15,145 bases of DNA from an uncultured Chloroflexia bacterium (GCA_963726245.1 CAVSBT010000023.1:1-15145); one strand, 5' to 3'; shown: positions 3 through 15,145, numbered from the stretch's first letter. The notes: generated from the letters alone by a model not told the origin. Made by a program: numbers and translations.

Positions 3-2078
3 GCCCCAGTTCCCAGTTCCGAGCTCCCAGTTCCTAGGTACATCACCATCGCCACGACGCGGCCCGAGACGATAGTGGCCGACACAGGCGTGGCCGTGCA
101 CCCCAAGGACGGGCGCTACCGGTCCCTCGTGGGCAGGAAGGCGCTCCTCCCCATCATCAACCGGGAGATTGTCATTGTCGCCGACGAGGCCATCGACCCG
201 GAGTTCGGCACTGGCGCCCTCAAGGTGACCCCTGGCCACGACCCCGTGGACTTCGACATCGGGCAGCGCCACGGCCTGCCCGTGATCAGCGCCATCGCCC
301 TGGATGCCACCATGAATGAGGACGCGGGCCCCTACAAGGGCATGGACCGGGACGAGTGCCGGCGGGCCATCGTGCGGGACCTGGAGGAGCAGGGCTACCT
401 GGTGAAGACGGAGCCCTACGTTCACTCCGTCGGCCACTGCTACCGCTGCGACAGCGTGGTGGAGCCCCTGGTCAGTCTCCAGTGGTTCATGCGCATGTGT
501 CAGCCGCTGGCGCGACCGGCCATCGAGGCGGTGAAGGACGGCCGTATCCGCTTCGTGCCGGAGCGCTTCACCAAAGTCTACCTGAACTGGATGGAGAACA
601 TCCGCGACTGGTGCATCTCGCGCCAGCTCTGGTGGGGCCATCGCATCCCCGTCTGGTACTGCGCCGACTGCGGCGGCCAGACGCTGGCCCCTCTACCCGG
701 CGCAGGCGATCCCCTGGCGAACCCGGACCACTGCCAGCACTGCCAGTCTCCCCGTATCGAACAGGACCCCGATACCCTGGACACCTGGTTCTCGTCCGGC
801 CTCTGGCCGCACTCCACCTTGGGCTGGCCCGACGACACCGAGGACCTCCGCTACTTCTACCCCACCTCCGTCATGCAGATGGGATACGAGATCCTCTTCT
901 TCTGGGGGGCCCGCATGATCATGACCGGGCTCTACAACATGGGCCAGATCCCGTTTCGCACCGTCTACCTGCATGGCCTCATCCGTGACGACCAGGGCCG
1001 CAAGATGAGCAAGACGGTGGGTAACGTGGTGGACCCGGTCGAGGTCATCGAGCGCTACGGCACCGACGCCCTCCGCTATGCCCTGGCCACGGGCAGCAGC
1101 CCCGGCAACGACATGAAGCTCTCGGAGCAGAAGCTGGAGGCCGGACGCAACTTCGCCAACAAGCTCTGGAACGCCGCCCGCTTCGTTCTCACCAACCTGG
1201 ACGGCGCCAGGCTCGAGCGCCCCTCCCTCGACCGGCGGCAGGCCATGCCCCTGGAGGACCGCTGGATCATGTCGCGGCTCCAGCGGGTGACGGCCAGCGT
1301 CAGCCAGCTCCTGGAGCGCTTCGAGCTGGGCGAGGCGGGCCGGCAGGTGCATGACTTCCTCTGGGGCGAGTACTGCGACTGGTATGTGGAGATGGCCAAG
1401 GTGCGGCTACGGGCGGGTGACTCCTCGCCCCTGCCGCTGCTGGTCCACGTGCTGGACAGCAGCCTCCGCCTCCTCCACCCCTACATGCCATACGTGACGG
1501 AGGAGATATGGCAGGCCCTGGCCGGCCACCTGCCGGACCGGGACGCCGAGGCCCTCATCGTGGCGCGCTTCCCGCAGCTCGACCCGGCCTGGCAGGACGA
1601 CGAGGCGGAGGCCCAGGCCGAGGCCGTCATCGAGGTGGTGCGCGCTATCCGCAACATCCGCTCCGAGCGGCGGGTGGAGCCGGCCCGCTTCGTGGAGGCC
1701 CACGTCCAGGCCCGACGCCTGCGGCCCGCCCTGGAGGCCAGCCGTCCCCTCATCGCCACGCTGGCCCGCGCCGAGCCCCTGCACATTGTCGGCGAGGAGA
1801 CGCGCCTGCCAAGCGAGAACGTGGCGACCGCCGTCCTGGCCGACGGCCGGGTGGCCCTGCCCCTGGCCGGGCTCTTCGACCTGGGGGCGGAGCGCAGCCG
1901 CTTCTCCCGGCAGATCGACGAGCTGGAGGGTGAGGTGAGCCGCCTGGAGGCGCGTCTGGCCGACGAGCGCTTCCGCACCCGCGCGCCCGCCGCCGTCGTG
2001 CGACAGGAGGAGGAGCGGCTGGCGTCGGCCCGCTCGCGGCTGGAGGGCCTGCGCGCCCGCCTCGGCGAGCTGGGGTAG
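3..2078 (+). CDS. valS: Valine--tRNA ligase, 5'-truncated by the window edge
   Basis: The frame is open from position 3 (IATTRPETIVADT). It has ValRS motifs FGTGALKVTPGHD, DWCISRQLWWGHRIP, DTLDTWFSS, the class I KMSK(T) motif, GRNFANKLWNA, and a C-terminal coiled coil. Stop TAG at 2076-2078. The HIGH motif lies upstream of the window. Confidence 0.97.
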   Translation, partial: APVPSSELPVPRYITIATTRPETIVADTGVAVHPKDGRYRSLVGRKALLPIINREIVIVADEAIDPEFGTGALKVTPGHDPVDFDIGQRHGLPVISAIALDATMNEDAGPYKGMDRDECRRAIVRDLEEQGYLVKTEPYVHSVGHCYRCDSVVEPLVSLQWFMRMCQPLARPAIEAVKDGRIRFVPERFTKVYLNWMENIRDWCISRQLWWGHRIPVWYCADCGGQTLAPLPGAGDPLANPDHCQHCQSPRIEQDPDTLDTWFSSGLWPHSTLGWPDDTEDLRYFYPTSVMQMGYEILFFWGARMIMTGLYNMGQIPFRTVYLHGLIRDDQGRKMSKTVGNVVDPVEVIERYGTDALRYALATGSSPGNDMKLSEQKLEAGRNFANKLWNAARFVLTNLDGARLERPSLDRRQAMPLEDRWIMSRLQRVTASVSQLLERFELGEAGRQVHDFLWGEYCDWYVEMAKVRLRAGDSSPLPLLVHVLDSSLRLLHPYMPYVTEEIWQALAGHLPDRDAEALIVARFPQLDPAWQDDEAEAQAEAVIEVVRAIRNIRSERRVEPARFVEAHVQARRLRPALEASRPLIATLARAEPLHIVGEETRLPSENVATAVLADGRVALPLAGLFDLGAERSRFSRQIDELEGEVSRLEARLADERFRTRAPAAVVRQEEERLASARSRLEGLRARLGELG
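5..39 (+). repeat. Degenerate 7-bp tandem repeat inside valS (5 units)
   Basis: Consecutive units CCCAGTT CCCAGTT CCGAGCT CCCAGTT CCTAGGT, translated in frame as PVPSSELPVPR. Confidence 0.7.
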
Positions 2079-2147: not shown

Positions 2148-5100
2148 ATGGCGGTTTCGAACGAACGTCTCAGGGAGATCATCGCCGAGCTGGTCAGCCG
2201 TCCCGGACATGAGAAGGTCCGGGCGCTGGTATACACGCTGCTCGTGGACGGGCTCGGCGCGACGAGCTCGGAGGTAGACTTCGAGCGACCCCTACCGGAG
2301 GTGCGGGGTCGGCCGGACGCCCTCTTGGGGCAGACCGTCTTCGAGTTCAAGCGCGACCTGCGAAGAGAGATTCGCGACGCCGAGGAAGAACTCTCACGCT
2401 ACTTGCCAGAACGCGAGCGCCAGACGGGTACCAGGTTCGTGGGCATTGCCACGGACGGCGCCGAGTTCGTGCCCTATGAGATTCGTCACGGTAGGCTCAC
2501 CAGCCTAGCTAAGTTCACGGTCGCGAAGGACGATCCTCGTGCCCTGCTGGTATGGCTCGACTCCGCCGTCTCGGTGCAAGCAGAGCTTGCGCCGGACCCG
2601 GAAACTGTACGGAGTGAGCTGGGACGCGACAGCCTGGCCTACGATATTGCACGCGCTAGGCTCGGTGAGCTGTGGGCGGGGGTGGCGGAGCACCCGGATG
2701 TTCGGCTCAAGCGCCAGTTGTGGGCCGATCTGTTGGAGCGGGTGTATGGTTCCGCCGTGGGTGACGACGGCCTCTTCTTCCAGCACACATACCTGACCAT
2801 CGTGGCGAAAACGATGGCCACCCGCGTCGTGGGGGCGGAGATGCCGGCTGCGGCTGACCTCCTGTCAGGAAGGCCCTTCCAGGAGGCGGGGATCGACGGC
2901 GCTGTGGAGTCGGACTTCTTCGACTGGGTGCTGGCAGGAGAGGGCAGCGCGGATGTGATTGGGCGCATCGCTCGCCAGGTGGCACGGTTCCGGCTGGCCG
3001 ATGTCCAGAGCCGACGTCCTCAAGGGGCTCTACGAATCGCTGATAGACCCACGTCAGCGTCACGACCTTGGTGAGTACTACACCCCTGACTGGCTGGCGG
3101 CGCGCATCTGTGAGCGGGCCATCGACCGCCCGCTGGAACAGAGGGTCTTAGACCCCGCATGTGGGTCCGGCACATTCCTCTTCCACGCGGTCAGGCGCTT
3201 TCTGGCGGCTGCAGACGCCGCGGGGCTCGCCAACGGCGAGGCGCTAAGCCGCTGCTGCGGGCAGGTTTTGGGCATTGATGTACACCCCGTTGCGGTGCTC
3301 ATCGCCCGGGTGACGTACCTGCTGGGCCTGGGCGAAAGGCTGCGCGACCCTGACCGCCCGCGTATGAGCATTCCCGTCTATCTGGGCGACTCCCTTCAGT
3401 GGAACACACGCGGGTTCCTCGCGGAACGCGAGGTGCTGATAGAGGTGCCAGAAGGCGGCCCTGTCCTGGAGTTCCCCTTCGCTGTGGCCCGCGATCCGGC
3501 TCTCTTCGACGCCGTGATCAGGCGGATGCTGGCGTTGAGTGAAGAGGAGGCGCCGCGCGAAGCCCTGGAGGCATGGCTGCGCCGGGAGCACAGCGTGGAT
3601 GATCACACCATCGGCGTGCTAACGCAGACGTACGCCGACTTGCGGGAACTGCGCTCCAAAGGGCAGAACCACATTTGGGGCTTCGTGGCCCGCAATTTGG
3701 TGCGGCCCGTCTGGCTGTCGCAGCACAGCGAGCGGGCCGACGTGGTTGTCGGGAACCCCCTTGGCTTGCGTATGGGTTCATGTCTGAGGCGATCCGCAAG
3801 CGTTTCCGGGCAGAATGCCAGGAGCAGGGGTATGTGGGTCGGAGGGCGTTTTGCCGCTCGGCAGGACCTGTCGGCGTATTTCTTCGCCCGCTGCGTTGAG
3901 CTGTACTTCAAGCCGGAGGGCGTTATCGCGTTCGTGATGCCCTACGGCGTGATGAGCCGCCGGCAGTACGAGCGGTTTCTCAGAGGGGTTTTCGGGCGCG
4001 CGGGCGGGGGTGGGCGCATCGGGCCCATAACATTCGTCCGCTTCACTGAGGCGTGGGTTTTCTCAGACGATGTGCAGCCCTTGTTCCAGGTGCCCTCGTG
4101 CGTGCTGTTTGCCCGCCTGCACGGCGTAGGCGATAGGGGGAAGGTCCTGCCGGGCGGGGTGGAGCGGGCGGTGGGGATCCTGCCGAAGCGGGACGCCAGT
4201 CCAGCCGAGGCGGAGGCTGCGCTGACGTGGCGGGAGGAGCCGTGGCCTGCTCTTGCCGCACGGGAAGGGGCGACGTGGTCGCCATACCACAAGCTTTTTC
4301 GCGAAGGCGCAACAGTGCGGCCGCGCGTGCTCTTCGTGGTGAAGCGGGTACCAGCTGGCCCGCTCGGAGGGACCCCAGCCGCGCCGGTCGTCGAGAGCCG
4401 CCGCACGACGCAAGAGAAGGCACCGTGGAAGAGCCTGGCAGCGCTCCGCAAACCGGTGGAATCAGATTTCCTGCGTCGTCTGTACATGGGCGAGTCAGTA
4501 GCGCCGTTCAGAGTGCTAGCGCCCCTGCTTGCCGTGATTCCGTGGGAAGAGGAAACGAAGCGTTTGCTAGACGGGGAGGCGGCACAACGGGCTGGGTACC
4601 CGCTTCTGAGTCGGTGGCTTCGGGAAGCGGAAGGGCATTGGCTCGAGCATCGCCGCCGTCCGGTCACGCTGGTGGAAGAGCTTGATCACTTCGGGAAGCT
4701 GTCTGCCCAGTTGCCAGGCGATGCTCTGCGCGTCGTGTACACGACACATGGCACGCTGCCAGCAGCCGGGGTCATAAGGGATGCTGCGGGCGTGATCGAG
4801 GATACGCTTTACTGGTTTGAACCCGCGGACTTGGACGAGGCGCGGTATCTCTCAGCGATACTAAACAGCGCAAGCACGCGGCGGAGGATCGAGCATCTTC
4901 AGAGCCGGGGTCAGTGGGGCGCGCGACACATTGTGAAGCTAGTGTTGGAACTCCCGATCCCCCGCTTCGCTTCTGGCAACCGCGTCCACCGGGCCCTGGC
5001 GGAGGCTGCGCAGCGGGCCGAGGAAGTCGCAGCGGGTGTGCCGCTGAGGGAGGGGGAGCACTTCGGGCGGGCCCGCGCTCTGATTCGCAAAGCGCTCGCC

Positions 5101-5154
5101 GAAGACGGCGTCTCCGGTCGGATCGACAGGCTTGTCGACAGGCTGCTGGGGTAG
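2148..5154 (+). CDS. Type IIG-like fused restriction endonuclease / N6-adenine DNA methyltransferase (~1000 aa once three apparent indels are repaired)
   Basis: N-terminal PD-(D/E)xK-like segment GRPDALLGQTVFEFK; motif X LGEYYTP; SAM-binding motif I VLDPACGSGTFL; motif IV NPPW recoverable at 3754-3764 by adding one C; C-terminal target-recognition-like region. ORFs 2148..3074 and 2959..5154 join at ~3011 (DVQS|DVLKGLYESL). Confidence 0.85.
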
Positions 5155-5204
5155 CCCGTCTAGGTTCCGAACAGCGCCTCCACGAGTTCGACTGGCTCTC
5201 CGGC

Positions 5205-5374
5205 TCCCCCTACCCCGCGCAGATGATGGAGCAGTCGGGGCCGTGGATGCGCTCCGCCTCGGCGATGGCCTCCTCGACGGTCGCGGTGGGGATGAAGCCG
5301 ACGTGCCGGGGCACCGCCGGGTCCTCGGCGCCCGCCACGAAGACGCGACCGGCGTGTCGCAGCCGCTTCAGGGG
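5205..5374. repeat. Direct repeat copy 1 (170 bp), duplicate of the LarA-like gene 3' end
   Basis: Aligns without gaps to 13743-13912 (offset 8538) with 10 mismatches. 5286-5347 is a 62-bp perfect match. Confidence 0.97.
5210..5374 (-). pseudogene. Orphan C-terminal 54 codons plus stop of the LarA-like gene
   Basis: Reads PLKRLRHAGRVFVAGAEDPAVPRHVGFIPTATVEEAIAEAERIHGPDCSIICAG*. It has no 5' part, and the phoU stop is only 22 bp upstream. Confidence 0.9.
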
Positions 5375-5396
5375 CGAAGCCGGGGAACGCCCAGGC

Positions 5397-6062
5397 TCAG
5401 TACTTGGAGACGTTTAGCTCCTCTACCTTGCCTTCCACCAGGTACACCACCCGCTCGCAGATGTTGGTCGCCCGGTCGGCGATTCGCTCCAGGTTGTGGG
5501 CTACCCAGATGAGGTAGGTGGCGCGCTGGATGGTGCGCGGGTCCCGGAGCATGAACGTCAGAAGTTCCCTATCGACCTGGTCATAGAGGGCATCGACCTC
5601 GTCGTCTGCGTCGCAAATCGACCGAGCCCGGTCTGCGTCGCGGGCTTTGAAGGCCTCCAGACTACCCATCAGCATGTCGATGGCGACCTGGGCCATCCGG
5701 GGGATATCGATGTAGGGCTTGAGGGGTGGCTCGTCGGCCAGCATGAGGGCGATCTTCGCGATTCCTTCCGCGTGGTCGCCCATGCGCTCCAGGTCAACGA
5801 TGATGTAGAGGACGGCGACGATGGTGCGAAGGTCGCTGGCCAGGGGCTGCTGGGTAGCCATGAGCTCCAGGCACTTCTCCTCAGTCTCGTAGCGCTTGCG
5901 GTTGATCTTGAGGTCGTCGGCGATGATCTGGCGGGCCAGCTCTACGTCACGATTGCGCAAGGCCTGGATACCCCGTTCGATGGCACTCTCCACCATGTTC
6001 GCCAGGACCAGCATGTCCTCCTGGATCTCGACAAGCTGGCGTTCGAAGGCAGTGCGGGTCAT
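5397..6062 (-). CDS. phoU: Phosphate signalling complex protein PhoU
   Basis: Motifs QQPLASDLR, DLERMGDHA, DDEVD and LERIADRATNICE; 221 aa; GGGAG RBS; directly after pstB. Confidence 0.97.
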   Translation of the reverse strand: MTRTAFERQLVEIQEDMLVLANMVESAIERGIQALRNRDVELARQIIADDLKINRKRYETEEKCLELMATQQPLASDLRTIVAVLYIIVDLERMGDHAEGIAKIALMLADEPPLKPYIDIPRMAQVAIDMLMGSLEAFKARDADRARSICDADDEVDALYDQVDRELLTFMLRDPRTIQRATYLIWVAHNLERIADRATNICERVVYLVEGKVEELNVSKY

Positions 6063-6076
6063 GGCTTGCGCTCCCT

Positions 6077-6952
6077 CTAGCCGAAGCGGCCCGTGATGTA
6101 GTCCTCGGTTCGCTTGTCCTTGGGATAGGTGAAGACGTCCCGCGTGGACCCGAACTCTATCATCTCGCCCGCCCGATCCTCCCCCATCATCATCACCGCC
6201 GTGTAGTCTGAGACACGCGCAGCCTGCTGCATGTTATGGGTGACGATGATGATCGTGTACTCGCGGGCCAGGTCCCGCATGAGGTCCTCGATCTTGAGAG
6301 TGGCGACGGGGTCGAGGGCGCTGCAGGGCTCGTCCATGAGAATGACTTCAGGCTCGATGGCCAGGGCGCGGGCGATGCAGAGGCGCTGTTGCTGGCCACC
6401 GGACAGCTCGGTGGCCGGCCGGTTAGGCTTGTCCTTCACCTCGTCCCAGAGGGCGGCCTGGCGCAGGCTGCGCTCTACTGTGTCTCCTAGAGCGCTGCGC
6501 CGCACAAGAAAACCGTTGAGGCGCAGGCCGGCCGCGACGTTGTCGAAGATGGACATCGTGGGGAAGGGGTTAGGCTTCTGAAAGACCATGCCGACGCGAC
6601 GGCGAACCAGCACCGCGTCCGTTCCGGGAGCGTAGATGTCATCTCCTCGCAAGAGCACCTCGCCGGAGACCCGGGCCCTGGGGGTCACCTCGTGCATCCT
6701 GTTGAAGCACCGTATCAGCGTCGACTTGCCGCAGCCGGACGGACCGATGATGGCGGTAATGCGCCTAGGTGGAACCAGCAGGCTGACCTCACGCAGCGCC
6801 TGGAACGACCCATACCAGGCGTTCAGGTCGCGGACGACCAGCCCCTCCGATAAGGCCTCTGTCTCAGAGACTGTGCCTTGCGCTTCGCTCTCCACACGCA
6901 TCTCATAGGCCATTATAGGGGCCTCACTCTCGAGTTGGGAATCTGTGGTCAT
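6077..6952 (-). CDS. pstB: Phosphate ABC transporter ATP-binding protein
   Basis: Walker [20 protein letters not shown], signature [13 protein letters not shown], Walker [18 protein letters not shown]-terminal [10 protein letters not shown]. Exact start uncertain (ATGs at 6952, 6913, ~6901). Confidence 0.97.
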
Positions 6953-6965
6953 CCTGCGCTTCCTG

Positions 6966-7805
6966 TCATTTTCTGGTCAGTACGAGTCGGGCTGTCAGGC
7001 TGATGAGGAACACCATCATGACCAGGACGAAGGACGCCGCCCAGGCCTGCTGGTGCCACTCGGGGTAAGGGCCGGTGCCATAACGCCAGATGCGTAGCGG
7101 CAAGGCATCGATAGGACCGCCGGTGACGCTCAGGGTCCACAGACGGTTGCCCAGGACGGTGAAGATGAGGGGCGCCGTCTCACCCCCGGCCCTCGCCACG
7201 GCCAGCAGACTGCCCGTAACCAGCCCCCGCCGCGCCGCGGGGATGATGACGCTGAGTATCGTCCGCCAGCGGGTGATGCCGAGGGCGAGGGCGGCCTCCC
7301 GCTGCGAGCGAGGCACCAGCTTCAGCATCTCCTCGCTGGAGCGGGCGACGATGGGCAGCATGATAACGGCCAGGGCTACCCCACCGGCCAGGGCCGAGAA
7401 GTGCCCCATCTTGAGCACTATTGCGCCATAGATGAAGACGCCGACCACGATGGAAGGCACGCCGGTCAAGACATCGGCGGTGAAGCGGATGACGTTCGCC
7501 AGGCGAGCGCCGGCGTACTCGCACAGGAAAACGCCCGCTCCCACGCCTACGGGGATGCCAATGAAGGCAGCGATGCCGATGGTCAGCAGCGAGCCGACTA
7601 TGGAGTTCGCGACGCCTCCGCCGGGCTCACCCAGGGGTGTCGGCATGTGAGTGAAGAAGTCCAGGTTCAGCGACCTGATGCCGTTGACCAGCACAAAGCC
7701 CAGTATCAGCGCCAGCACTCCAACAGCTACGAAGGCCGAGGCCGCGCAGAAGCCGAGCGCCACGGCGCTCGCGGTCTTCCGCCGACGGTACGTTATGCTG
7801 CTCAT
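6966..7805 (-). CDS. pstA: Phosphate ABC transporter permease PstA
   Basis: Motifs [26 protein letters not shown] and [10 protein letters not shown]. Start placed at ATG 7805 ([10 protein letters not shown]), overlapping the pstC stop as ATGA. Confidence 0.95.
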
Positions 7806-8788
7806 TCGGCGATCAACTCTGGCGAGCGGGCCACCCGCCATACCAGGAGCCTGGCCAGTACGTTCACCAGGAGGGTTATGCCCATGAGGATGAGCGCAAG
7901 CTCCACCAGCGCAGAGGTATAGAGGCTGAACGTGGCCTCGTTGAACTCGCTTGCCAGGGTGCTGGCGGCGGTGCTGGCAGGCTCGAACAGAGCGGCCGTG
8001 ATGTTGTAGCCCTTGCCGATCACCATCGTGACCGCCATCGTCTCGCCAAGGGCCCGGCCCAGGCCCAGGATGATTGCCCCTACCACGCCTGACCGGCAGT
8101 AGGGGAGGACAGCCCCCAGGATCACCTCCCACTTGGTGGCGCCCAGCGCCACCATCGCCTCACGCTGGCTCGCGGGCACGGCCTGCATCACGTCCCGGGA
8201 GATGGCGGTAATGATCGGCAGGACCATGATGGCCAGGACGAGGCCGGCGGACAGCATTCCGAAGCCGCCGAAGACACGCCCCTGGAAGAGAGGGATGAAA
8301 CTGAGATGGCTCAGCATCCGCTTCTCCAGGAAGTCTCCCGCCCAGGGATTCAACACATAGATGCCCCACAACCCGAGCACCACGCTGGGGATGGCGGCGA
8401 GCATCTCCACAAGGAAGGAAAGGGGGTTCCGCAGCCAGGGCGGCGCCATCTCCGAGAGGAAGATGGCCGCTCCCAGGCTCACGGGCACCGCCAGGACTAG
8501 GGCGATGAGGGAGCTGACGAGGGTTCCGTAGATGGCGGGCGCCGCCCCAAACACCCGATGCGCCGCGTCCCAGCGCGTGCCGGTGAGAAAGCCCCAGCCG
8601 AAGGCGCTGATGGACTCGCGTGACTGGAGCACCAGCTCGTAGGTCAGGAAGAAAGCCAGCGCCAGCACCGAGAGCCCCAGCGCGGCGAAGACAGCTCTGA
8701 ATAGGGGGTCGCCCCAGTTGCCGATGCCCCGCGGCCTACGCCTTGCCAGGGCTGGCGCAGTTGTTGAGCCGCCTCTGCCTGGCCGCAC
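7802..8788 (-). CDS. pstC: Phosphate ABC transporter permease PstC
   Basis: Motifs IYGTLVSS, LAAIPSVVLGLWG, REAMVALGATKWE and LGRALGETMAV. GTG start with upstream GAGGAG. Confidence 0.96.
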   Translation of the reverse strand: MRPGRGGSTTAPALARRRPRGIGNWGDPLFRAVFAALGLSVLALAFFLTYELVLQSRESISAFGWGFLTGTRWDAAHRVFGAAPAIYGTLVSSLIALVLAVPVSLGAAIFLSEMAPPWLRNPLSFLVEMLAAIPSVVLGLWGIYVLNPWAGDFLEKRMLSHLSFIPLFQGRVFGGFGMLSAGLVLAIMVLPIITAISRDVMQAVPASQREAMVALGATKWEVILGAVLPYCRSGVVGAIILGLGRALGETMAVTMVIGKGYNITAALFEPASTAASTLASEFNEATFSLYTSALVELALILMGITLLVNVLARLLVWRVARSPELIAE

Positions 8789-8802
8789 TTCTTCTCCTCG
8801 AC

Positions 8803-8819
8803 CCGGTCTGGCCGACCGG
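8803..8819 (-). other. Short hairpin in the pstS-pstC spacer (possible mRNA stabiliser)
   Basis: CCGGTC-tggcc-GACCGG: 6-bp stem, 5-nt loop, right after the pstS stop. No U-tract. Confidence 0.4.
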
Positions 8820-8820
8820 C

Positions 8821-10025
8821 TTAGGGGACCTGAAGCAGGGGCTGACCCTGGTAGCTGATGGACCTAATCTCTGCCTCCGCCTTCTTGACCGCGTCCGGCG
8901 ACAGGGAGGCGTACAGCAGGTCTTTGGTGAATTGCTGGCCGTCGTGGATGGACCACCACAGGTAGTAGACCAGCGCTTGGCCCTTCGCCTGATCGCTTTG
9001 GTTCACGTAGGCGAGTATCCACGTGAACCCCACGATGGGGTAGGCGTCGGGGTTCGATGAGTCGGTCAGGAGCACCTTCATGTCATCGGGAAGCGATATG
9101 CCTATGGCCGCCGCCGTTGCGCCGTCCAGGCTGGGCTCCTCGAACGTGCCGCTCTTGTTGCGAACCGCCGCCCACGACAGGTTGTTCTGGACGGCGTAGG
9201 CCAGCTCAACATAGCCGATGGCGCCAGGGATCTGGCGCACCTGGTTGGCCACGCCCTCGTTCCCCTCGCCGCCGATGTCGCCCGGCCACTCCACGGACGT
9301 GGCGTAGCTCACCTTGTCGCTCCACTCCTGGCTCACCTTCGACAGGTAGTTGGTGAAGATGAACGTCGTGCCGGAGCCGTCAGAGCGGTGCACGACGGCG
9401 ATGTCCGTGTCCGGCAGGTTGACGCCCGAGTTGTCGGCCGACTATGCGGGGGTCGTTCCACTTGGTGATCTTCTTCAGGTAGATGTCTGCCAGGACATCG
9501 GGAGCGAGCTTGAGCTGGCCGTTCTCGACGCCGGGCAGGTTGAAGACCACGGCGACGGCGCCGACCGTCATCGGGATGTGGAGTATGGGCCCGCCGGCGG
9601 CCTCGGCCGCGGCCGTCTGCTCGTCGTTCATGATGCCGTCGCTGGCCCCGAAGTCCACTGTCTTAGCAGTGATCTGCTTGATGCCGCCCCCGGAGCCGAT
9701 GGACTGGTAGTTGATCTGGACCTTGCATTGCTTGCCGAACTCATCGATCCACTTGGAGTAGAGGGGAAAGGGAAAGGTGGCGCCGGCGCCCGTGAGTGAG
9801 GTCGCCGCGCCGGCGGGCGGACAGGATGCTCGCCGCCTGGGCGCTCGGCGATGGCTGGCCGCCCGCTGACCGCGTGGCGGTGGGGCTTTTCGAGCCGCCG
9901 TTGTCGCCTCCGCCGCAGGCGGCCAGCAAAAAGGCCGCGAGTGTCGCGGCCAGGATGCCTGCGAAGAGCGTGAGGAGCTTGCGGGAACGTCTCGTTTTCT
10001 CCGCTCCAGGTGCAATGTGACTCAA
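8821..10025 (-). CDS. pstS: Phosphate-binding lipoprotein PstS, split over three frames by two apparent +1 indels (~9831 and ~9438)
   Basis: AGGAGG (10032-10037) then TTG start at 10025. Basic plus hydrophobic signal with lipobox LAAC. Motifs TGAGATFP, YQSIGSGGG, VDFGASD, HRSDGSGTT, GAIGYVE and AYPI. Confidence 0.93.
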
Positions 10026-10074
10026 TATGGACCTCCTAAGGTGTGCTTTCTCTTCACAACCTGTTCTGGCTCTC

Positions 10075-10128
10075 ACGATAAGGATTGCCGGTTAACGGGT
10101 TGTTAACGGCAGTGAACAAGGGGTAAAA
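10075..10128 (-). promoter_or_regulatory. Putative Pho-box array and -10 element of the pstSCAB-phoU promoter
   Basis: Plus-strand hexamers GTTAAC 10091, GTTAAC 10102, GTGAAC 10112, GTAAAA 10123 (spacing 11/10/11). Minus-strand TATCGT (10075-10080) lies 10 nt downstream of the last box. Confidence 0.75.
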
Positions 10129-10459
10129 GTTTGGCCTTCCGTCCGGCGTCGCTGCCTGGGCTCATCGCCCGCAGCACCGCGAGACGCTCGCGCCAGGAGC
10201 TGAGCGCCTCTCGGAGTAGCTCTGCTGCCTGGAGTCCGGTGCGCACCTCCTGCGGGTCCTGGGCTTCACCCACGCTGCAGAGCAACTCGAAGAGGGCGCG
10301 CTCGCAGGCCCTCGCCAGAAAGGTGCAGGCAAGGAGCTGAACTTGTGGCCCTTCTGTCCTGCCATCAGGGGATAGTCCGGGGTAACCGGCGAGGAATAGC
10401 GGCGCGCCCTCTATCGAACACTGAGCATTGGCAGCAGATAGGTAGAGTGATTGATCCAT
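10103..10459 (-). CDS. Hypothetical protein (~118 aa, helical C-terminal half)
   Basis: Co-oriented with neighbours; GGAG 8 nt before ATG 10459 (alternative GTG 10477 overlaps the upstream stop). No recognised motif. Its stop lies within the Pho-box array. Confidence 0.5.
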   Translation of the reverse strand: MDQSLYLSAANAQCSIEGAPLFLAGYPGLSPDGRTEGPQVQLLACTFLARACERALFELLCSVGEAQDPQEVRTGLQAAELLREALSSWRERLAVLRAMSPGSDAGRKAKLLPLVHCR

Positions 10460-10473
10460 TACGCAGACTCCAA

Positions 10474-10728
10474 TCACTTCGGCCCGTCATCGGTGTTGGG
10501 CTGTTCGACCTCGCTTTCCTGCAGGCTCGAAAGCAGCCAGCTTGGCAGGGACTTGAACGCTTCTTCCATGCCGGGCTCCACGCGCCAAGTCCACGCTTGA
10601 CGGCGCTTCGCCGCCGCCTTTGGGCTCCCCCGCGCCTGCCGCACGCTGGAGAGCCGTTCCAGTTCGCGCTCCCTCTCCGCGGTAGTCACCGCCAGCAGTT
10701 CCTCGGTCATTAGCATCCCAGTGATCAT
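10474..10728 (-). CDS. Hypothetical small protein (~84 aa)
   Basis: Strong GGAGGTG (10732-10738) before ATG 10728; charged helical segment AERERELERL; co-oriented with the operon. Confidence 0.6.
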   Translation of the reverse strand: MITGMLMTEELLAVTTAERERELERLSSVRQARGSPKAAAKRRQAWTWRVEPGMEEAFKSLPSWLLSSLQESEVEQPNTDDGPK

Positions 10729-10870
10729 TGTCACCTCCATCAAAGAGCAACCGCCACATCCCAGGAAGAAGGGTGCCGCCGATCATTGCTGCCCGTCATC
10801 CTCCATGTCGATTGAGTGGGCTAGCATACCGCCCATGGGTCAGGAGGCTGGAGGAGTTGGCGGCCACCGG

Positions 10871-10948
10871 GTGGGCGGTAGGCTAGGGTCGGGGGATGCC
10901 GCTCACTCCCCGCCTGCTGAACGTACATCCCCCGATCCCTCGGCCCAC
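10871..10948. other. Stem-loop in the long phoR-downstream intergenic region
   Basis: TCGGGGGATG (10889-10898) is the exact reverse complement of CATCCCCCGA (10926-10935). Pairing extends via AGGG/CCCT and GTGGGC (10871-10876)/GCCCAC (10943-10948). Confidence 0.55.
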
Positions 10949-10961
10949 GTTTGAGGCAAAC
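10949..10961. promoter_or_regulatory. Palindromic motif GTTTG-AGG-CAAAC, copy 1
   Basis: An identical intergenic 13-mer recurs at 13682-13694. Confidence 0.5.
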
Positions 10962-11022
10962 TGACTTGAAGGACGCCAACACTAGAGCTCACTCACGTTA
11001 ATGCAACCTTGTTCCGGGAGAA

Positions 11023-11076
11023 AGGGTAATGCCGGCAGTTTAACGGCGGATTGACGCCCGTTAACAGGACGTAAAC
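11023..11076 (-). promoter_or_regulatory. Second putative Pho-box array and -10 element
   Basis: Plus-strand hexamers TTTAAC 11039, ATTGAC 11050, GTTAAC 11060, GTAAAC 11071 (spacing 11/10/11). Minus-strand TACCCT (11023-11028) is 10 nt from the last box, the same geometry as the pstS promoter. Confidence 0.7.
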
Positions 11077-11098
11077 GTTGCGTCAAAACTGGGGTGGG

Positions 11099-12886
11099 CT
11101 AACTCTCCGAGGGCTCGGGCGCGGCAGGGATAGAGAAGCTGAACGTGGAGCCGTGGCCGAGTTCGCTCTCCACGCCGACAGTGCCGCCGTGGGCCTCCAC
11201 CGTATGCTTCACCACGGCCAGGCCCAGGCCGGTGCCCCCGACTGGGCGGCCACCCGTCCGGGCACGGGCGCGGTCGGCCTTGTAGAACCGTTCGAAGATG
11301 CGCGGCAGGTCCTCGGGGGCGATACCTATGCCTGTGTCACTCACGTTGACGGTCACGGCGCCATCCTCAGGATGCGCCGAGACGTGGACCGAGCCGCCGC
11401 CGGGAGTGAACTTGATGGCGTTGTGAAGGAGGTTGACGGCCGCCTGCTCCAAGCGTTCGGCGTCGCCGATGACGGAAGGCAGGTCAGGAGGCACCTCCAG
11501 AGTAAGGCTGACCCCCTCCTTCTCTGCTTGAGGGCGCATTCGTCCGACGGCCTTCGCAAGGACTTGGCCCATCTCCACCTGTTGCCGTTCGAGCGGAACG
11601 CGCTCGGATTCAACACGGGACAGCTCCAGGAGCTCCTCCACCATCTGCACCAGCCGGTCCACCTCCGCATCTGCACGCGAGAGGAAGTCCTGGGCCGCCG
11701 CCCGGTCATCGAGTGCCCCGGACTGCAGTGTCTCTATCACCGACTTGATGGAGGCGAGCGGCGTGCGAAGCTCATGGGAGACGTTCGCCACGAAGTCGCG
11801 GCGCACCTGCTCAACCTGCTTGATGTCGGTCAGGTCATGGAAAACAACCAGGCCTGCCCACTCGCCGCCGTCAACGATGGGTGTTGCGATGATCTCCAGG
11901 TATCGGCGGTTCGGCTGGTCAAGAAGGCGCGTCTCGCGGGACCCGTTCTGGCGGCTGATCCTCAGTGCCTCTAGCACCTGCTCATTGGGCATTACCCAGC
12001 CAAAGGGATTGCCAAGCAGCTCCTGCTGAGAGCGTGAGAACAGGCGCTCCGCAGCCACGTTGGCGAAAATGACGCGGTCCTCGGTGTCCACCGCTACCAC
12101 CGCGTCGATACTGCTGTTGAGAGCGGCTATGAGGCGGCTGCGCTCCTGAGAGGCGGACACGAGGAGGTCTTCAACGCTTGCGGCCATCTGGTTAAAGGCA
12201 TCGCTCAGGTCCCCTAGCTCACCAGAAGGCCGCGGGCTCACCCGCTCGCTCAGGTTGCCCGCGGCGATGCTGCGAGCCGCCTTCGCGAGCCTGCTGAGTG
12301 GCCGCGTGATGGCGCTGCCTACCAGCAGGCTCAGGGCGGCGGCCGCCGCTGCGGTGGCGACCACGCCGATCAGGATCGAGCGGGTGATATCGGACAGTGA
12401 GGAATCGACCGCCGCCGTCGGCCGCGCCACCCGCACGACGCCAACGACATTACCATCGGCAGTGACACTGGTGGCGACGTAGGTGAAGTTGATCCCCAGG
12501 GTGCTGCTGTGCCGGTCGCTCTTCCCCTGCCCGGTGCGGATCGCCTCCTGGACCTCTGGCCGACTCAGGTGGTTTTCCATGGTCGCGGGGTCGGCCTCGG
12601 AGTCACCCAGCACCGTGCCGTCGGGAGCGATAATGGTGATGCGGGTATCGGTCTGGGCGCCCAGTTGCTTCGCGAGCTGGTCAAAGGCCGCCGGCGGAGC
12701 GCCTTGCTGCACAAGAGGTCCCACAAGGTTCTTTGCCATCTGAGCCTGGGAGGCCAAGTCCGCCTCGATGCTCTTTCGAAAGTCACCCTCGACTTTGCCC
12801 AGGATGTACAGCCCGAGGCCGGCGAAGGCGGCCACAATGAGCAAAACGTAGGCGGCGGCGGTGCGAAGGCGAAGGCTCCTCAGCAT
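11099..12886 (-). CDS. phoR: PhoR-type sensor histidine kinase (2 TM, extracytoplasmic domain, HAMP, PAS, HisKA, HATPase)
   Basis: H box DFVANVSHELRTP, N box NLLHNAIKFT, G1 DTGIGI, F box IFERFY, G2 GGTGLGL. Start placed at ATG 12886, 2 nt after the regulator stop. Confidence 0.92.
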   Translation of the reverse strand: MLRSLRLRTAAAYVLLIVAAFAGLGLYILGKVEGDFRKSIEADLASQAQMAKNLVGPLVQQGAPPAAFDQLAKQLGAQTDTRITIIAPDGTVLGDSEADPATMENHLSRPEVQEAIRTGQGKSDRHSSTLGINFTYVATSVTADGNVVGVVRVARPTAAVDSSLSDITRSILIGVVATAAAAAALSLLVGSAITRPLSRLAKAARSIAAGNLSERVSPRPSGELGDLSDAFNQMAASVEDLLVSASQERSRLIAALNSSIDAVVAVDTEDRVIFANVAAERLFSRSQQELLGNPFGWVMPNEQVLEALRISRQNGSRETRLLDQPNRRYLEIIATPIVDGGEWAGLVVFHDLTDIKQVEQVRRDFVANVSHELRTPLASIKSVIETLQSGALDDRAAAQDFLSRADAEVDRLVQMVEELLELSRVESERVPLERQQVEMGQVLAKAVGRMRPQAEKEGVSLTLEVPPDLPSVIGDAERLEQAAVNLLHNAIKFTPGGGSVHVSAHPEDGAVTVNVSDTGIGIAPEDLPRIFERFYKADRARARTGGRPVGGTGLGLAVVKHTVEAHGGTVGVESELGHGSTFSFSIPAAPEPSES

Positions 12887-12888
12887 CC

Positions 12889-13569
12889 CTAACCGTCGAA
12901 TCGATATCCCACGCCGCGGACAGTGATGAGCCGCGACGGCTTGGCAGGCACGTCCTCTGTCTTCTGGCGTAACCATCGGATGTGGACGTCCACTGTGCGG
13001 GTGTCACCCACGAAGTCATAACCCCAGATCTGGTTCAGGAGCTGGTCGCGCGTGAAGGCGCGGCCGCGGTTGCGAAGGAAGAAGGCCAGCAGGTCGAACT
13101 CCTTAGGCTTTAGCGGGAGCGCCTGGCCGCCCCGCGACGCTTCCCTCCTCCGCAGGTCCACCTGAAGCTCGCCGGCTACCAGGACTTCCGTCTCGGCCGC
13201 CGGCGCTGTCTCGGCGCGGCGCAAGAGGGCGCGGACGCGGGCCAGAAGCTCGCGCATGCTGAACGGCTTGGTGACGTAGTCGTCGGCGCCCAGCTCCAGT
13301 CCCACCACCTTGTCTATCTCGTCGGTCTTGGCTGTCAACATCAGGATGGGCGTGGTCATCTCGCGGCGGAGGATGCGGCAGACCTCGAGGCCGTCCATCA
13401 CCGGCAGCAGAAGGTCAAGGAGTATGAGGTCGGGGCGGTTCGCGCGGGCAGCGGAGAGGCCTGCTTCGCCGTCTGCGGCGGTGATGACGCAGTAGCCCTC
13501 GCGCTCGAGATTGTACTTCAGGGTCGCTACGAGCGTGGGCTCATCATCGACAACGAGGACCTTCTTCAC
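12889..13569 (-). CDS. phoB: OmpR/PhoB-family response regulator (PhoB/PhoP by context)
   Basis: Receiver VLVVDDE...ILLD...LTAK...GADDYVTKPF; winged helix RTVDVHIRWLR...TVRGVGYRF. Phosphate specificity is inferred from adjacency to phoR and pst. Confidence 0.88.
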   Translation of the reverse strand: MKKVLVVDDEPTLVATLKYNLEREGYCVITAADGEAGLSAARANRPDLILLDLLLPVMDGLEVCRILRREMTTPILMLTAKTDEIDKVVGLELGADDYVTKPFSMRELLARVRALLRRAETAPAAETEVLVAGELQVDLRRREASRGGQALPLKPKEFDLLAFFLRNRGRAFTRDQLLNQIWGYDFVGDTRTVDVHIRWLRQKTEDVPAKPSRLITVRGVGYRFDG

Positions 13570-13601
13570 GAGAGGGAGTCCCAGCTCCGCGTTCTGAGGC
13601 C

Positions 13602-13607
13602 ATTATA
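13602..13607 (-). promoter_or_regulatory. Putative -10 element of the phoB-phoR promoter
   Basis: Perfect TATAAT on the minus strand, 32 nt upstream of GTG 13569. No clear -35. Confidence 0.55.
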
Positions 13608-13681
13608 GGACGGTAGCGCCTTGTGTAGCCATTGGCCGGGCGCGGGGCGGAGGCGCGGTGAGACGTGGAAGCGCTTCGGTT

Positions 13682-13694
13682 GTTTGAGGCAAAC
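13682..13694. promoter_or_regulatory. Palindromic motif GTTTG-AGG-CAAAC, copy 2, upstream of phoB
   Basis: Exact match to 10949-10961. Confidence 0.5.
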
Positions 13695-13742
13695 GGGCAG
13701 GACTTAGCGTTCGGACCGGTTTAGCCCCGTTTACCGCTGGGA

Positions 13743-13912
13743 TCCCCCTACCCCGCGCAGATGATCGAGCAGTCGGGGCCGTGGACTTTCTCGGCCTGGG
13801 CGATGGCCTCCTCGACGGTCGCCGTGGGGATGAAGCCGACGTGCCGGGGCACCGCCGGGTCCTCGGCGCCCGCCACGAAGACGCGGCCGGCGTGTCGCAG
13901 GCGCTTCAGGGG
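13743..13912. repeat. Direct repeat copy 2 (170 bp), current 3' end of the LarA-like gene
   Basis: 160/170 identical to 5205-5374; includes the stop codon and 5 downstream bases. Confidence 0.97.
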
Positions 13913-15104
13913 GTGCGTGGCCAGGATGCCGTGGATGGGGTGGAAGGCGCAGCCCCGCCGGTACATCTCGACGTAGTCGGAGCGCGCCGCGAACTCGTCC
14001 AGGAAGCGCTCAGTGATCTCGTAGGGGTCCAGCGACTGGGTGAGCACCCGGTCCCACACCTCCGGGTACGAGGGGTGGTGCTCCATGTCCCACTGCTCGG
14101 GACAGGGCGTGGAGAGGATCACCGAGCACCCCGGCTTCCCCAGCGCCTCGATGTAGCCGCCCAGGTAGCCCAGGCCCGAGGAGATCAGGGTGAGGATGGG
14201 GTTCATCCTGGCGAAGGTGGCGTAGGGGCTCCAGTTGGGCACGCCGTAGATGATGACGTCGGCCGGCTCGGCGGCCGTCCGGCGCGGCGGGTTCTGGGCC
14301 GCCTGCACCTCCAGGGCGCGCGCCCGCGTCTCCGAGACGGTGCCGGCCCAGATGTGGGCTATCGTCATCGCGTCCGCCAGGAGCGTCTCCACCTTGAAGA
14401 TGCGGCGCCCGATGGACTTCTCCAGGTGCTCGCCCATGCTCATCGAAGACCTGGTGCATGCGGTTGCCCCGGACCGACATCGACATGCCGTCCGGGGTGT
14501 GCGTCCAGCGGATGGAGCGCCAGGTGGAGAGGCCCACGCAGACCGACTTCCAGCCGCCGCTGAAGCCCAGCATGACGCCGGCATTGATGTAGACCGTCAG
14601 GTCTGAGTCGGCCACCAGGCGGTGCACCTCCACGTCGTAGCCGCTCGCCGTCGTGCCGAGGTTGACCAGGTTCTCCGCGTCCTCGGCGTCGTGGCAGGCC
14701 AGGCGCGGCCCGAAGCGCCGCACCAATTCTTCTCCCAGGATGCTGGTCAGCTCTTCGTGCGTCCACTTGCGGTGGAGGGCGTTGGCGCAGACCAGGTTGA
14801 CGTTCTCCTCCGGGACGCCGACCAGCGCCAGCTCCTCGAGGACGGCCTCGATGACCAGGCGCCGCACCGGCCCGTAGGAAGGCGCCGTCGGATCGTCGAA
14901 GGCGATGAGCACCCGGCCGCCGGGGCGCACCATCTCCCGGATGCGCGGCAGGCCGAGCGGCTTCGCCAGGGCGGTCAGGACCGCCTCGGCCTGGTCCGTG
15001 ACCGGCTGGAGGCCGCTGCGCAGGTCGCGGGAGGGGAAACGCGTGCGGTCCGGCAGGCTGACTTCGACTGTGGTGTCACCGTAGGGGAGCGTTCTCGTAA
15101 TCAT
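13748..15104 (-). CDS. LarA-superfamily (DUF2088, lactate racemase N-terminal domain) protein with one apparent +1 indel at ~14438
   Basis: N-terminal LPYG, AL..PLG.PRI.E, IAFDDPT, CANALHR, CHDAED and GFSGGWKS; C-terminal TVEEAI. Removing one base joins MHQVFDE to MGEHLEK, giving ~451 aa. Confidence 0.82.
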
Positions 15105-15145
15105 AGTGCCCAACTCATATCAGACGGTGCCGCCACGCGCAAGGG

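Follow-up and report, generated by a model that had tools for sequence, protein, structure and literature searches.

A phosphate regulon enclosed by a duplicated larA gene end appears to be the scar of a recombination event in a strain-variable region of a Chloroflexota chromosome

How does a complete phosphate regulon come to lie between a gene and a second copy of that gene's own last codons? The question is raised by a 15,145-bp stretch of DNA, the whole of contig C23 of the metagenome-assembled genome (MAG) G000 from an uncultured Chloroflexia bacterium, which we call the window. In it, phoB, phoR, pstSCAB and phoU (the pho-pst cluster) stand between a full-length gene for a LarA homologue and an orphaned copy of the larA 3' end. 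An earlier interpretation made from the window alone (the sequence-only reading) saw here a self-contained mobile phosphate module. Our comparisons with the rest of the bin, with genomes of the order and with public metagenome contigs suggest that the locus is the scar of a recombination event in a chromosomal region that varies among strains, rather than a mobile element of a novel kind.

A repeat search returned an ungapped 173-nt direct repeat at 5202-5374 and 13740-13912 (94%, spacing 8538). The gap-free repeats described earlier at 5205-5374 and 13743-13912 lie inside it, and alignment confirmed their perfect 62-nt core at 5286-5347. Each copy covers the end of a LarA-like minus-strand gene: its final 54 codons, its stop and the next 8 nt. 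The copies are identical at 155 of 165 coding positions and carry 1 further mismatch in the 8 nt past the stop, giving 11 differences in all. They diverge 8 nt past the larA stop, the border at which homology of the anchor gene ends. Beyond what the sequence-only reading had described, we could assign the full LarA-like gene to the right-hand copy, at which its reading frame is restored, bar one probable assembly indel. The elements that define the two borders are as follows:

5202..5374, minus strand: orphan larA 3' end (54 codons, stop and 8 nt), beside the stop of a restriction-modification (RM) gene; from the repeat alignment
5375..5396, minus strand: 22-nt joint between the phoU stop (codon at 5397-5399) and the orphan
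13740..13912, minus strand: repeat copy belonging to the complete larA-like gene, as its authentic 3' end; from the repeat alignment
13748..15113, minus strand: LarA-like gene of about 454 codons (Pfam Lar_N), with a one-base frameshift near 14438

The joint has the 22 nt reported earlier, and the orphan ends 38-40 nt from the RM gene stop. A terminator hairpin is present after phoU on C30, another contig of G000, and is missing from the window joint. Read in the direction of transcription, on the minus strand, the order is larA, a 170-nt spacer, phoB, phoR, two small open reading frames (ORFs), pstS, pstC, pstA, pstB, phoU and the orphan. Family searches agree with the sequence-only reading that phoB, phoR, two ORFs, pstSCAB and phoU, all on the minus strand, are the only genes between the repeats. 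They also bear out its statement that no integrase is present: six-frame searches of C23, together with Pfam, PHROGs and NCBIfam searches of its ORFs, found no tyrosine (PF00589) or serine (PF00239) recombinase.

Beyond the orphan lie an RM gene and valS, which converge on larA:

3..2078, plus strand: C-terminal 691 codons of valS, cut by the contig start (Pfam tRNA-synt_1, Anticodon_1, Val_tRNA-synt_C); one border of the slot
2148..5154, plus strand: single-chain restriction-modification / N6-adenine methyltransferase gene (Pfam N6_Mtase), split by a frameshift into 2148-3074 and 2959-5154

Relatives retain this site uninterrupted. In G007, from another genus of the family, the RM and larA stops are 15 nt apart, and the window RM end plus orphan (5038-5374) is colinear with G007:C143:30362-30658 at 75%. 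When public metagenome contigs were scanned for a 29-nt pattern taken from the repeat core, 21 loci emerged; 16 of them run on into the larA body, 3 (L035, L040, L047) break off too near the pattern for this to be judged, and 2 are orphan fragments (L043, L054). The window-type RM gene lies directly downstream of larA in L035 and L038 and one extra gene away in L044, a flank shared by L042; in L036 and L048, larA meets valS directly. Relatives thus show RM and larA, or larA and valS, standing tail to tail. Elsewhere larA is followed by four other RM or methylase genes (L034, L039, L046, L053), a GrpB gene (L041) or phoB-phoR (L047), and in the remaining loci by unnamed or too-short sequence. 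Type ISP remnants plus a methyltransferase occupy the slot on contig C17 of G000, and ABC transporter genes occupy it in G001. These differing contents indicate that the gap between the convergent larA and valS genes is, as judged from the loci compared, a strain-variable slot mostly filled with defence genes.

A short conserved stretch that contains GGAGGCGCTGTTCGG is found at 5150-5210 of the window and in the 60-70 nt after the larA stop in L038, L042, L044, L050, L049, L053 and L045. The variants that have it carry different genes beyond, and it may mark the real start of the variable slot.

Colinearity of the orphan with the RM-larA junctions of G007, L035 and L038 bears on one alternative, in which an entire second larA once stood after phoU, as a paralogue, and deletion left only its tail as the orphan. 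Most changes that separate the two copies are synonymous or conservative (3 amino-acid changes in 54 codons), as would be expected of two once-functional genes. However, no second full larA occurs in the 93 genomes of the order, none of the 17 pho-pst loci examined has a larA match nearby, and the colinearity identifies the orphan as the tail of the slot's own larA rather than of a phoU-linked paralogue. We regard a truncated paralogue as very unlikely.

Is the arrangement real, or was it made during assembly? Support for the right junction that is independent of the window's assembly comes from L047, a 1752-nt contig from another sample that carries a larA end, the spacer, phoB and phoR. It matches the window at 92.8% in the larA end, 93.3% in the spacer (166 of 178 aligned positions), 87.5% in phoB and 75.4% in the N-terminal part of phoR.

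The source assembly calls for some care. G000 comprises 46 contigs and 2.68 Mb, with a completeness of 82.8% and a contamination of 6.28%. Self-comparison shows many contig pairs that are 85-98% identical (for example C19/C38, C18/C29 and C3/C13). Because large parts of G000 are thus present twice, the bin mixes at least two related Chloroflexota populations, and duplicated genes in it are not to be taken as paralogues. C17 has a second valS (91%; C17:42452-44502) and, only 4.2 kb from it, another larA (92%); the interval contains no pho-pst genes. In a different context, C30 carries another set of pstSCAB-phoU genes (89%), accompanied by a phoB (79%) and a shorter phoR (75%) of their own. These second copies identify the window as the valS-larA region of a second, related population.

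As assembled, larA, pstS and the RM gene of the window are each frameshifted. Relatives' contigs are one base shorter at window positions 14438, 9438 and 9827, and the essential gene valS is itself broken into four pieces on C17, in a frameshift-rich region (3782-6525 of locus L004); for these reasons the window frameshifts look like assembly indels rather than pseudogenes, and the assembly appears indel-prone. Single-base frameshifts are frequent in it generally, both in that C17 region and in the window (14438, 9438, 9827 and 13648).

Such a background lends some plausibility to an assembly chimera of two co-binned populations, formed through the shared larA or a chimeric read. The MAG is mixed, with 6.28% contamination and contig pairs at 85-98% that include the second valS and larA on C17; the assembly is error-prone, with frameshifts even in valS; and none of the 22 sequencing runs compared contains the window sequence (the best contained 0.31 of sampled window words and none reached half). 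Yet a switch inside the larA repeat would lead on into the larA body and not to a point 22 nt beyond phoU, and 11 differences separate the two copies, which are therefore not a collapsed repeat. The right junction is present in L047, and the same geometry occurs in G001 and L054, which come from other assemblies. A 226-nt contig of run X4 (13540-13765) also runs from phoB into the repeat, reaching 26 nt, short of the 31 letters required of a supporting contig. A chimera seems hardly likely at all.

Contigs of runs X1-X4 were aligned to the window at 90% likeness, and only relatives' contigs matched. Two stretches had next to no coverage, one in the RM region at about 2526-5050 and one around the small ORFs at 10101-11110; these gaps are uninformative. 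A few odd joints in X1 contigs (for example 5930 to 13801, depth 4.8) had short sides and were not used, nor was X1 record 2 (982 nt), which covers phoU plus 121 off-window letters whose side is uncertain.

The window orphan is not the only one of its kind. An order-wide scan of 93 genomes with the 173-mer repeat found matches in 44, a tally that includes the unpublished G051, with at least two matches in four (G000, G001, G063 and G088); a verified extra partial larA copy was found only in G000 and G001. The second fragment in G063 is an artefact of two contigs that overlap by 100 nt, and G088 has two short matches of 28 and 92 nt. In G001:C127, 5.6 kb of ABC-transporter genes separate a full larA from a second larA core copy at the contig end. 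L054 has the same joint and continues to the stop codon and into a different flank; this orphan begins about 45 nt later than that of the window. A third, in L043, has 44 codons and is fused to the last 20 codons of an RM gene at a shared 8-nt CGTCTTCG. The three orphans (window, G001/L054 and L043) thus have three start points within about 45 nt, and no two boundaries are identical. In L043 the orphan, with its in-frame stop, and the RM tail adjoin a HicA/HicB-like toxin-antitoxin pair, another rearranged slot.

From the repeat, the uninterrupted sites, the independently recovered right junction, the other orphans and the missing recombinase, we infer a homologous exchange on one side and an illegitimate joint on the other, by homology-facilitated illegitimate recombination (HFIR) or by Campbell-type insertion-duplication, a mechanism to which we give somewhat better than even chances. 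Two slot arrangements would have been joined: larA-phoB-phoR-pstSCAB-phoU, and larA standing tail to tail with an RM gene beside valS. Homologous exchange would have occurred in the conserved flank on one side, and on the other an illegitimate, probably microhomology-guided joint would have connected DNA 22 nt past phoU to a point 54 codons before the larA end. The outcome would be a full larA, the pho-pst cluster and then an orphaned larA tail still joined to its old RM neighbour, and an element-encoded recombinase would not be needed.

An equivalent route would be a circularised fragment that enters the chromosome by a Campbell-type single crossover. In insertion-duplication of this type, circular DNA carrying a piece of its target crosses over once, leaving the target whole and direct repeats as long as the shared homology, and recombination between the repeats can reverse or amplify the insertion. 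Unlike a plain insertion of this kind, the phoU/larA joint of the window would first need an illegitimate event, and a natural source of the circle is hypothetical. As to sequence at the joint, C30 reads GCCCCAAATGAAGATCGG past phoU and larA reads CCCCTGAAGCGG, an imperfect CCCC..TGAAG..CGG match; a joint at microhomology is possible but imperfect.

Several points weigh against this account. L047 begins inside the repeat, so that an upstream full larA is not visible and the second parental arrangement is only partly seen. The left junction, from phoU to the orphan, was found in no other sequence, including the X1-X4 contigs, and among the runs no single molecule was shown to span the junctions. 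The sequence past phoU is known only from C30, which is 89% identical, and its imperfect match to larA could be chance. The three orphan boundaries lie close together and all contain part of the 62-nt core; a site-specific system with differing attP lengths could also give such boundaries. Finally, the account would require some route by which DNA enters the cell, such as competence or conjugation.

The last of the sequence points leads to another explanation: an integrase-less cassette flanked by attachment (att) sites, cis-mobilisable or a decayed relative of the tycheposons, which a recombinase encoded elsewhere inserted at the larA 3' end, the element bringing the replacement end with it. 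The geometry is that of attL and attR, a second cargo (the ABC transporter genes) lies between larA and an orphan end in G001 and L054, all three orphans hold part of the conserved core, and other contigs of G000 encode recombinases, 3 of the tyrosine and 5 of the serine type. But no recombinase occurs in any cargo segment examined, and the three orphans have three boundaries, one of them a microhomology fusion to an RM gene, so that illegitimate joints fit better than one att site. Nor do the window and G004 clusters have common conserved element ends, and the composition of the cluster is not foreign.

Tycheposons of Prochlorococcus, in the accessible text of their description (bioRxiv 10.1101/2020.12.28.424599), carry nutrient-uptake cargo that can include phosphate assimilation, in strain-variable islands with partial copies of the target gene at their bounds, and one cargo cassette was duplicated under selection. 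The window resembles them in its nutrient-uptake cargo bounded by partial target-gene copies in a strain-variable island; unlike what that text describes, it shows no tyrosine recombinases, replication genes or tRNA targets. Taken together, we consider insertion of an att-flanked cassette unlikely. A broader version, in which the larA 3' end would be a true attachment site in these Chloroflexota and recombinase-less cassettes (pho-pst, ABC transporter, RM) would be moved in trans, seems distinctly unlikely; if it were true, the phosphate regulon would be a plug-in module, lost, gained or tandemly amplified under phosphate stress.

A possible att pair elsewhere was also considered. In G004 (C10, locus L009) a tRNA-Gly gene stands on one side of the pho-pst cluster and a 37-nt copy of that gene's 3' half on the other, which would suit an att-flanked cassette, but the fragment and its leader also occur on C40 and C15 of G000 away from pho-pst genes, and the repeat was rejected as an att pair. 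The gene and the copies of its 3' half, all tRNA-Gly(GCC), are at L009 1-72 and 7953-7989, G000 C40:2248-2292 and G000 C15 at about 247010-247036. Judging from this distribution, the G004 fragment is an old feature rather than an insertion mark. Across two genera, the 37-45-nt copy follows a conserved promoter-like leader and is itself followed directly by tRNA-Cys and tRNA-Leu. Given its near identity to the real tRNA, the copy may be maintained or serve a function rather than being a decaying scar.

Is the cluster, then, a mobile module in its own right? The order phoB-phoR-pstSCAB-phoU recurs across the family and the order, and the base composition of the region is not distinct. Its divergence tracks housekeeping genes: identity of the pst genes is 89% with C30 and 82% with G004, and that of valS is 91% and 77%. 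Around 10 pho-pst loci we found no shared neighbour genes (high-scoring segment pairs in 6 flank pairs, all at 25-36% identity); this comparison had no synteny control, and differing flanks do not show mobility. Part of the island interpretation survives, namely an insertion with a duplicated gene end, uninterrupted sites in relatives and a plausible role for homologous recombination. Its self-contained mobile phosphate module is not supported: the cluster is the family's normal pho-pst, ordinary in order and composition. Excision or amplification through the 62-nt core, which it also proposed, is possible in principle.

Under the joining of two slot arrangements that we favour, the direction could be either way: pho-pst may have entered an RM-bearing slot, or the RM gene and orphan may have come to lie beside a resident pho-pst cluster. 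The window orphan has 0 private substitutions in 165 nt among 27 other larA ends compared and encodes the same peptide as the G001 gene. Its nearest relatives, at 162 of 165 positions, are L042 and L044, alleles linked to the closest RM gene (92% protein identity). The full-gene copy has a derived patch (AQAEKVH vs AEAERIH) plus one private change. Because the orphan is undecayed and the larA-phoB junction is common to a lineage that is 12.5% diverged in phoB, the larA-pho adjacency is probably the older feature and the orphan's joint a young one. On that order, the latest arrival could be the RM gene together with its larA tail, not pho-pst. The larA alleles are mosaics, a crossover point inside the repeat is not placeable from shared polymorphisms, and recombination among alleles blurs the inferred order of events.

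The enclosed genes themselves are those expected of a phosphate regulon, with pstS, pstC, pstA, pstB and phoU all in one cluster of the window:

5397..6062, minus strand: phoU (Pfam PhoU; NCBIfam TIGR02135 at 213.5 bits, above the cut-off of 130.25)
6077..6952, minus strand: pstB, ABC ATPase (Pfam ABC_tran), 93% identical in protein to the C30 copy
6966..7850, minus strand: pstA, permease (Pfam BPD_transp_1); start uncertain, the listed ORF runs to 8132
7802..8788, minus strand: pstC, permease (Pfam BPD_transp_1)
8821..10015, minus strand: pstS, with Pfam PBP_like_2 in each piece; an extra base near 9438 splits it into 8821-9393 and 9380-10015
10091..10107, minus strand: Pho-box-like tandem GTTNAC hexamers, 11 nt apart, upstream of pstS; from a pattern search
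10103..10477, minus strand: small conserved ORF of 118-124 residues, with 5 homologues at 69-91% identity, all unnamed
10474..10743, minus strand: small conserved ORF of 88-89 residues, with 2 homologues at 90% identity besides itself
11060..11076, minus strand: second Pho-box-like hexamer pair, after the phoR stop and ahead of the small ORFs; from a pattern search
11099..12976, minus strand: phoR-like kinase (sCache-like, HAMP, PAS, HisKA and HATPase; Pfam), true start probably nearer 12886
12889..13569, minus strand: phoB-like OmpR-family response regulator (Pfam Response_reg, Trans_reg_C)
13570..13739, minus strand: 170-nt spacer from the larA stop region to phoB, with a TATAAT box; same spacer in L047

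The pstS orthologue of G004 is in a single frame and passes TIGR00975. The two regulators score under the cut-offs of their models (phoB-like, TIGR02154, 238 bits vs 296.2; phoR-like, TIGR02966, 292 bits vs 334.2), and the WalK/YycF and PnpS models give similar scores, also under cut-off; we use the names phoB and phoR because of the conserved linkage to pstSCAB-phoU and the Pho-box-like repeats. The motif (GTTNAC-N5-GTTAAC) has 3 matches at the 2 sites vs 0 in 200 shuffles, and it occurs in G004 and C30 too. Neither small ORF matched a family in Pfam, PHROGs or NCBIfam; their homologues are conserved hypothetical proteins of a few environmental relatives, and the roughly 960 bp between phoR and pstS (window 10103-11098) are absent from G004, C30 and an X1 contig. 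Placed behind their own Pho-box-like hexamer pair, the two small ORFs probably belong to the phosphate regulon as additional members.

The window phoR is 82% identical in DNA to that of G004 along its whole length. The C30 phoR (locus L005, 6269-8251) is without the N-terminal sensor part of about 200 codons. Between C30 and the window, phoB and phoR are 75-79% identical and the adjoining pst genes 89%, as if the regulator pair had been exchanged, apparently, in one of the two G000 populations.

Of the flanking genes, the RM orthologue in G007 is a single 1126-aa ORF with N6_Mtase and MmeI_Mtase matches, and the RM protein is 92% identical in metagenome locus L044. The larA gene is in one unbroken frame in C17, G001 and G004. 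Window larA scores 147 bits with Pfam Lar_N vs a cut-off of 23.3, and the best NCBIfam LarA model (LarAH14/15/16) reaches 303 vs a cut-off of 740 on the intact C17 copy; on these scores we call it a LarA homologue, with no subfamily label. Its DNA is 88% identical to G019:C221 and G023:C90, from another family, and only 79% to same-family G004, a pattern across families that suggests lateral spread or unusually strong conservation.

The geometry of the locus is already known from other systems. The e14 element and phage 21 integrate in icd of E. coli by means of their own integrase and fixed att boundaries, leaving an orphan icd end. As there, the window shows an insertion at the 3' end of a metabolic gene, a replacement end of about 50 codons and the original end displaced; unlike there, it has no integrase and orphan boundaries vary.

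A closer parallel in mechanism is offered by Kirchberger et al. 2017 (PMC5361080), whose accessible text explains orphaned 3' regions in rhs, contact-dependent inhibition (CDI) and type VI secretion system (T6SS) effector-immunity arrays by HFIR, citing de Vries & Wackernagel 2002, Prudhomme et al. 2002 and Meier & Wackernagel 2003. As described there, a conserved gene serves as the anchor, new DNA arrives behind it and the old 3' end is displaced downstream as an orphan; no recombinase is required, and several different orphans occur per locus across strains. The window shares these features and differs in that its anchor is metabolic (a LarA homologue) and not a toxin, that the enclosed DNA is the core phosphate regulon, and that there is no selection comparable to the keeping of old immunity genes which that text describes.

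The window is mildly unusual in enclosing a complete phosphate regulon and in doing so within a defence-gene slot. It cautions against accepting a gene block as a mobile island merely on the strength of a duplicated gene end at its borders. RecA-dependent loss or tandem amplification of the cluster could proceed through the 173-nt repeats and their perfect 62-nt core. If the proposed exchange is correct, a core nutrient regulon can be moved into a defence-gene hotspot by ordinary recombination.

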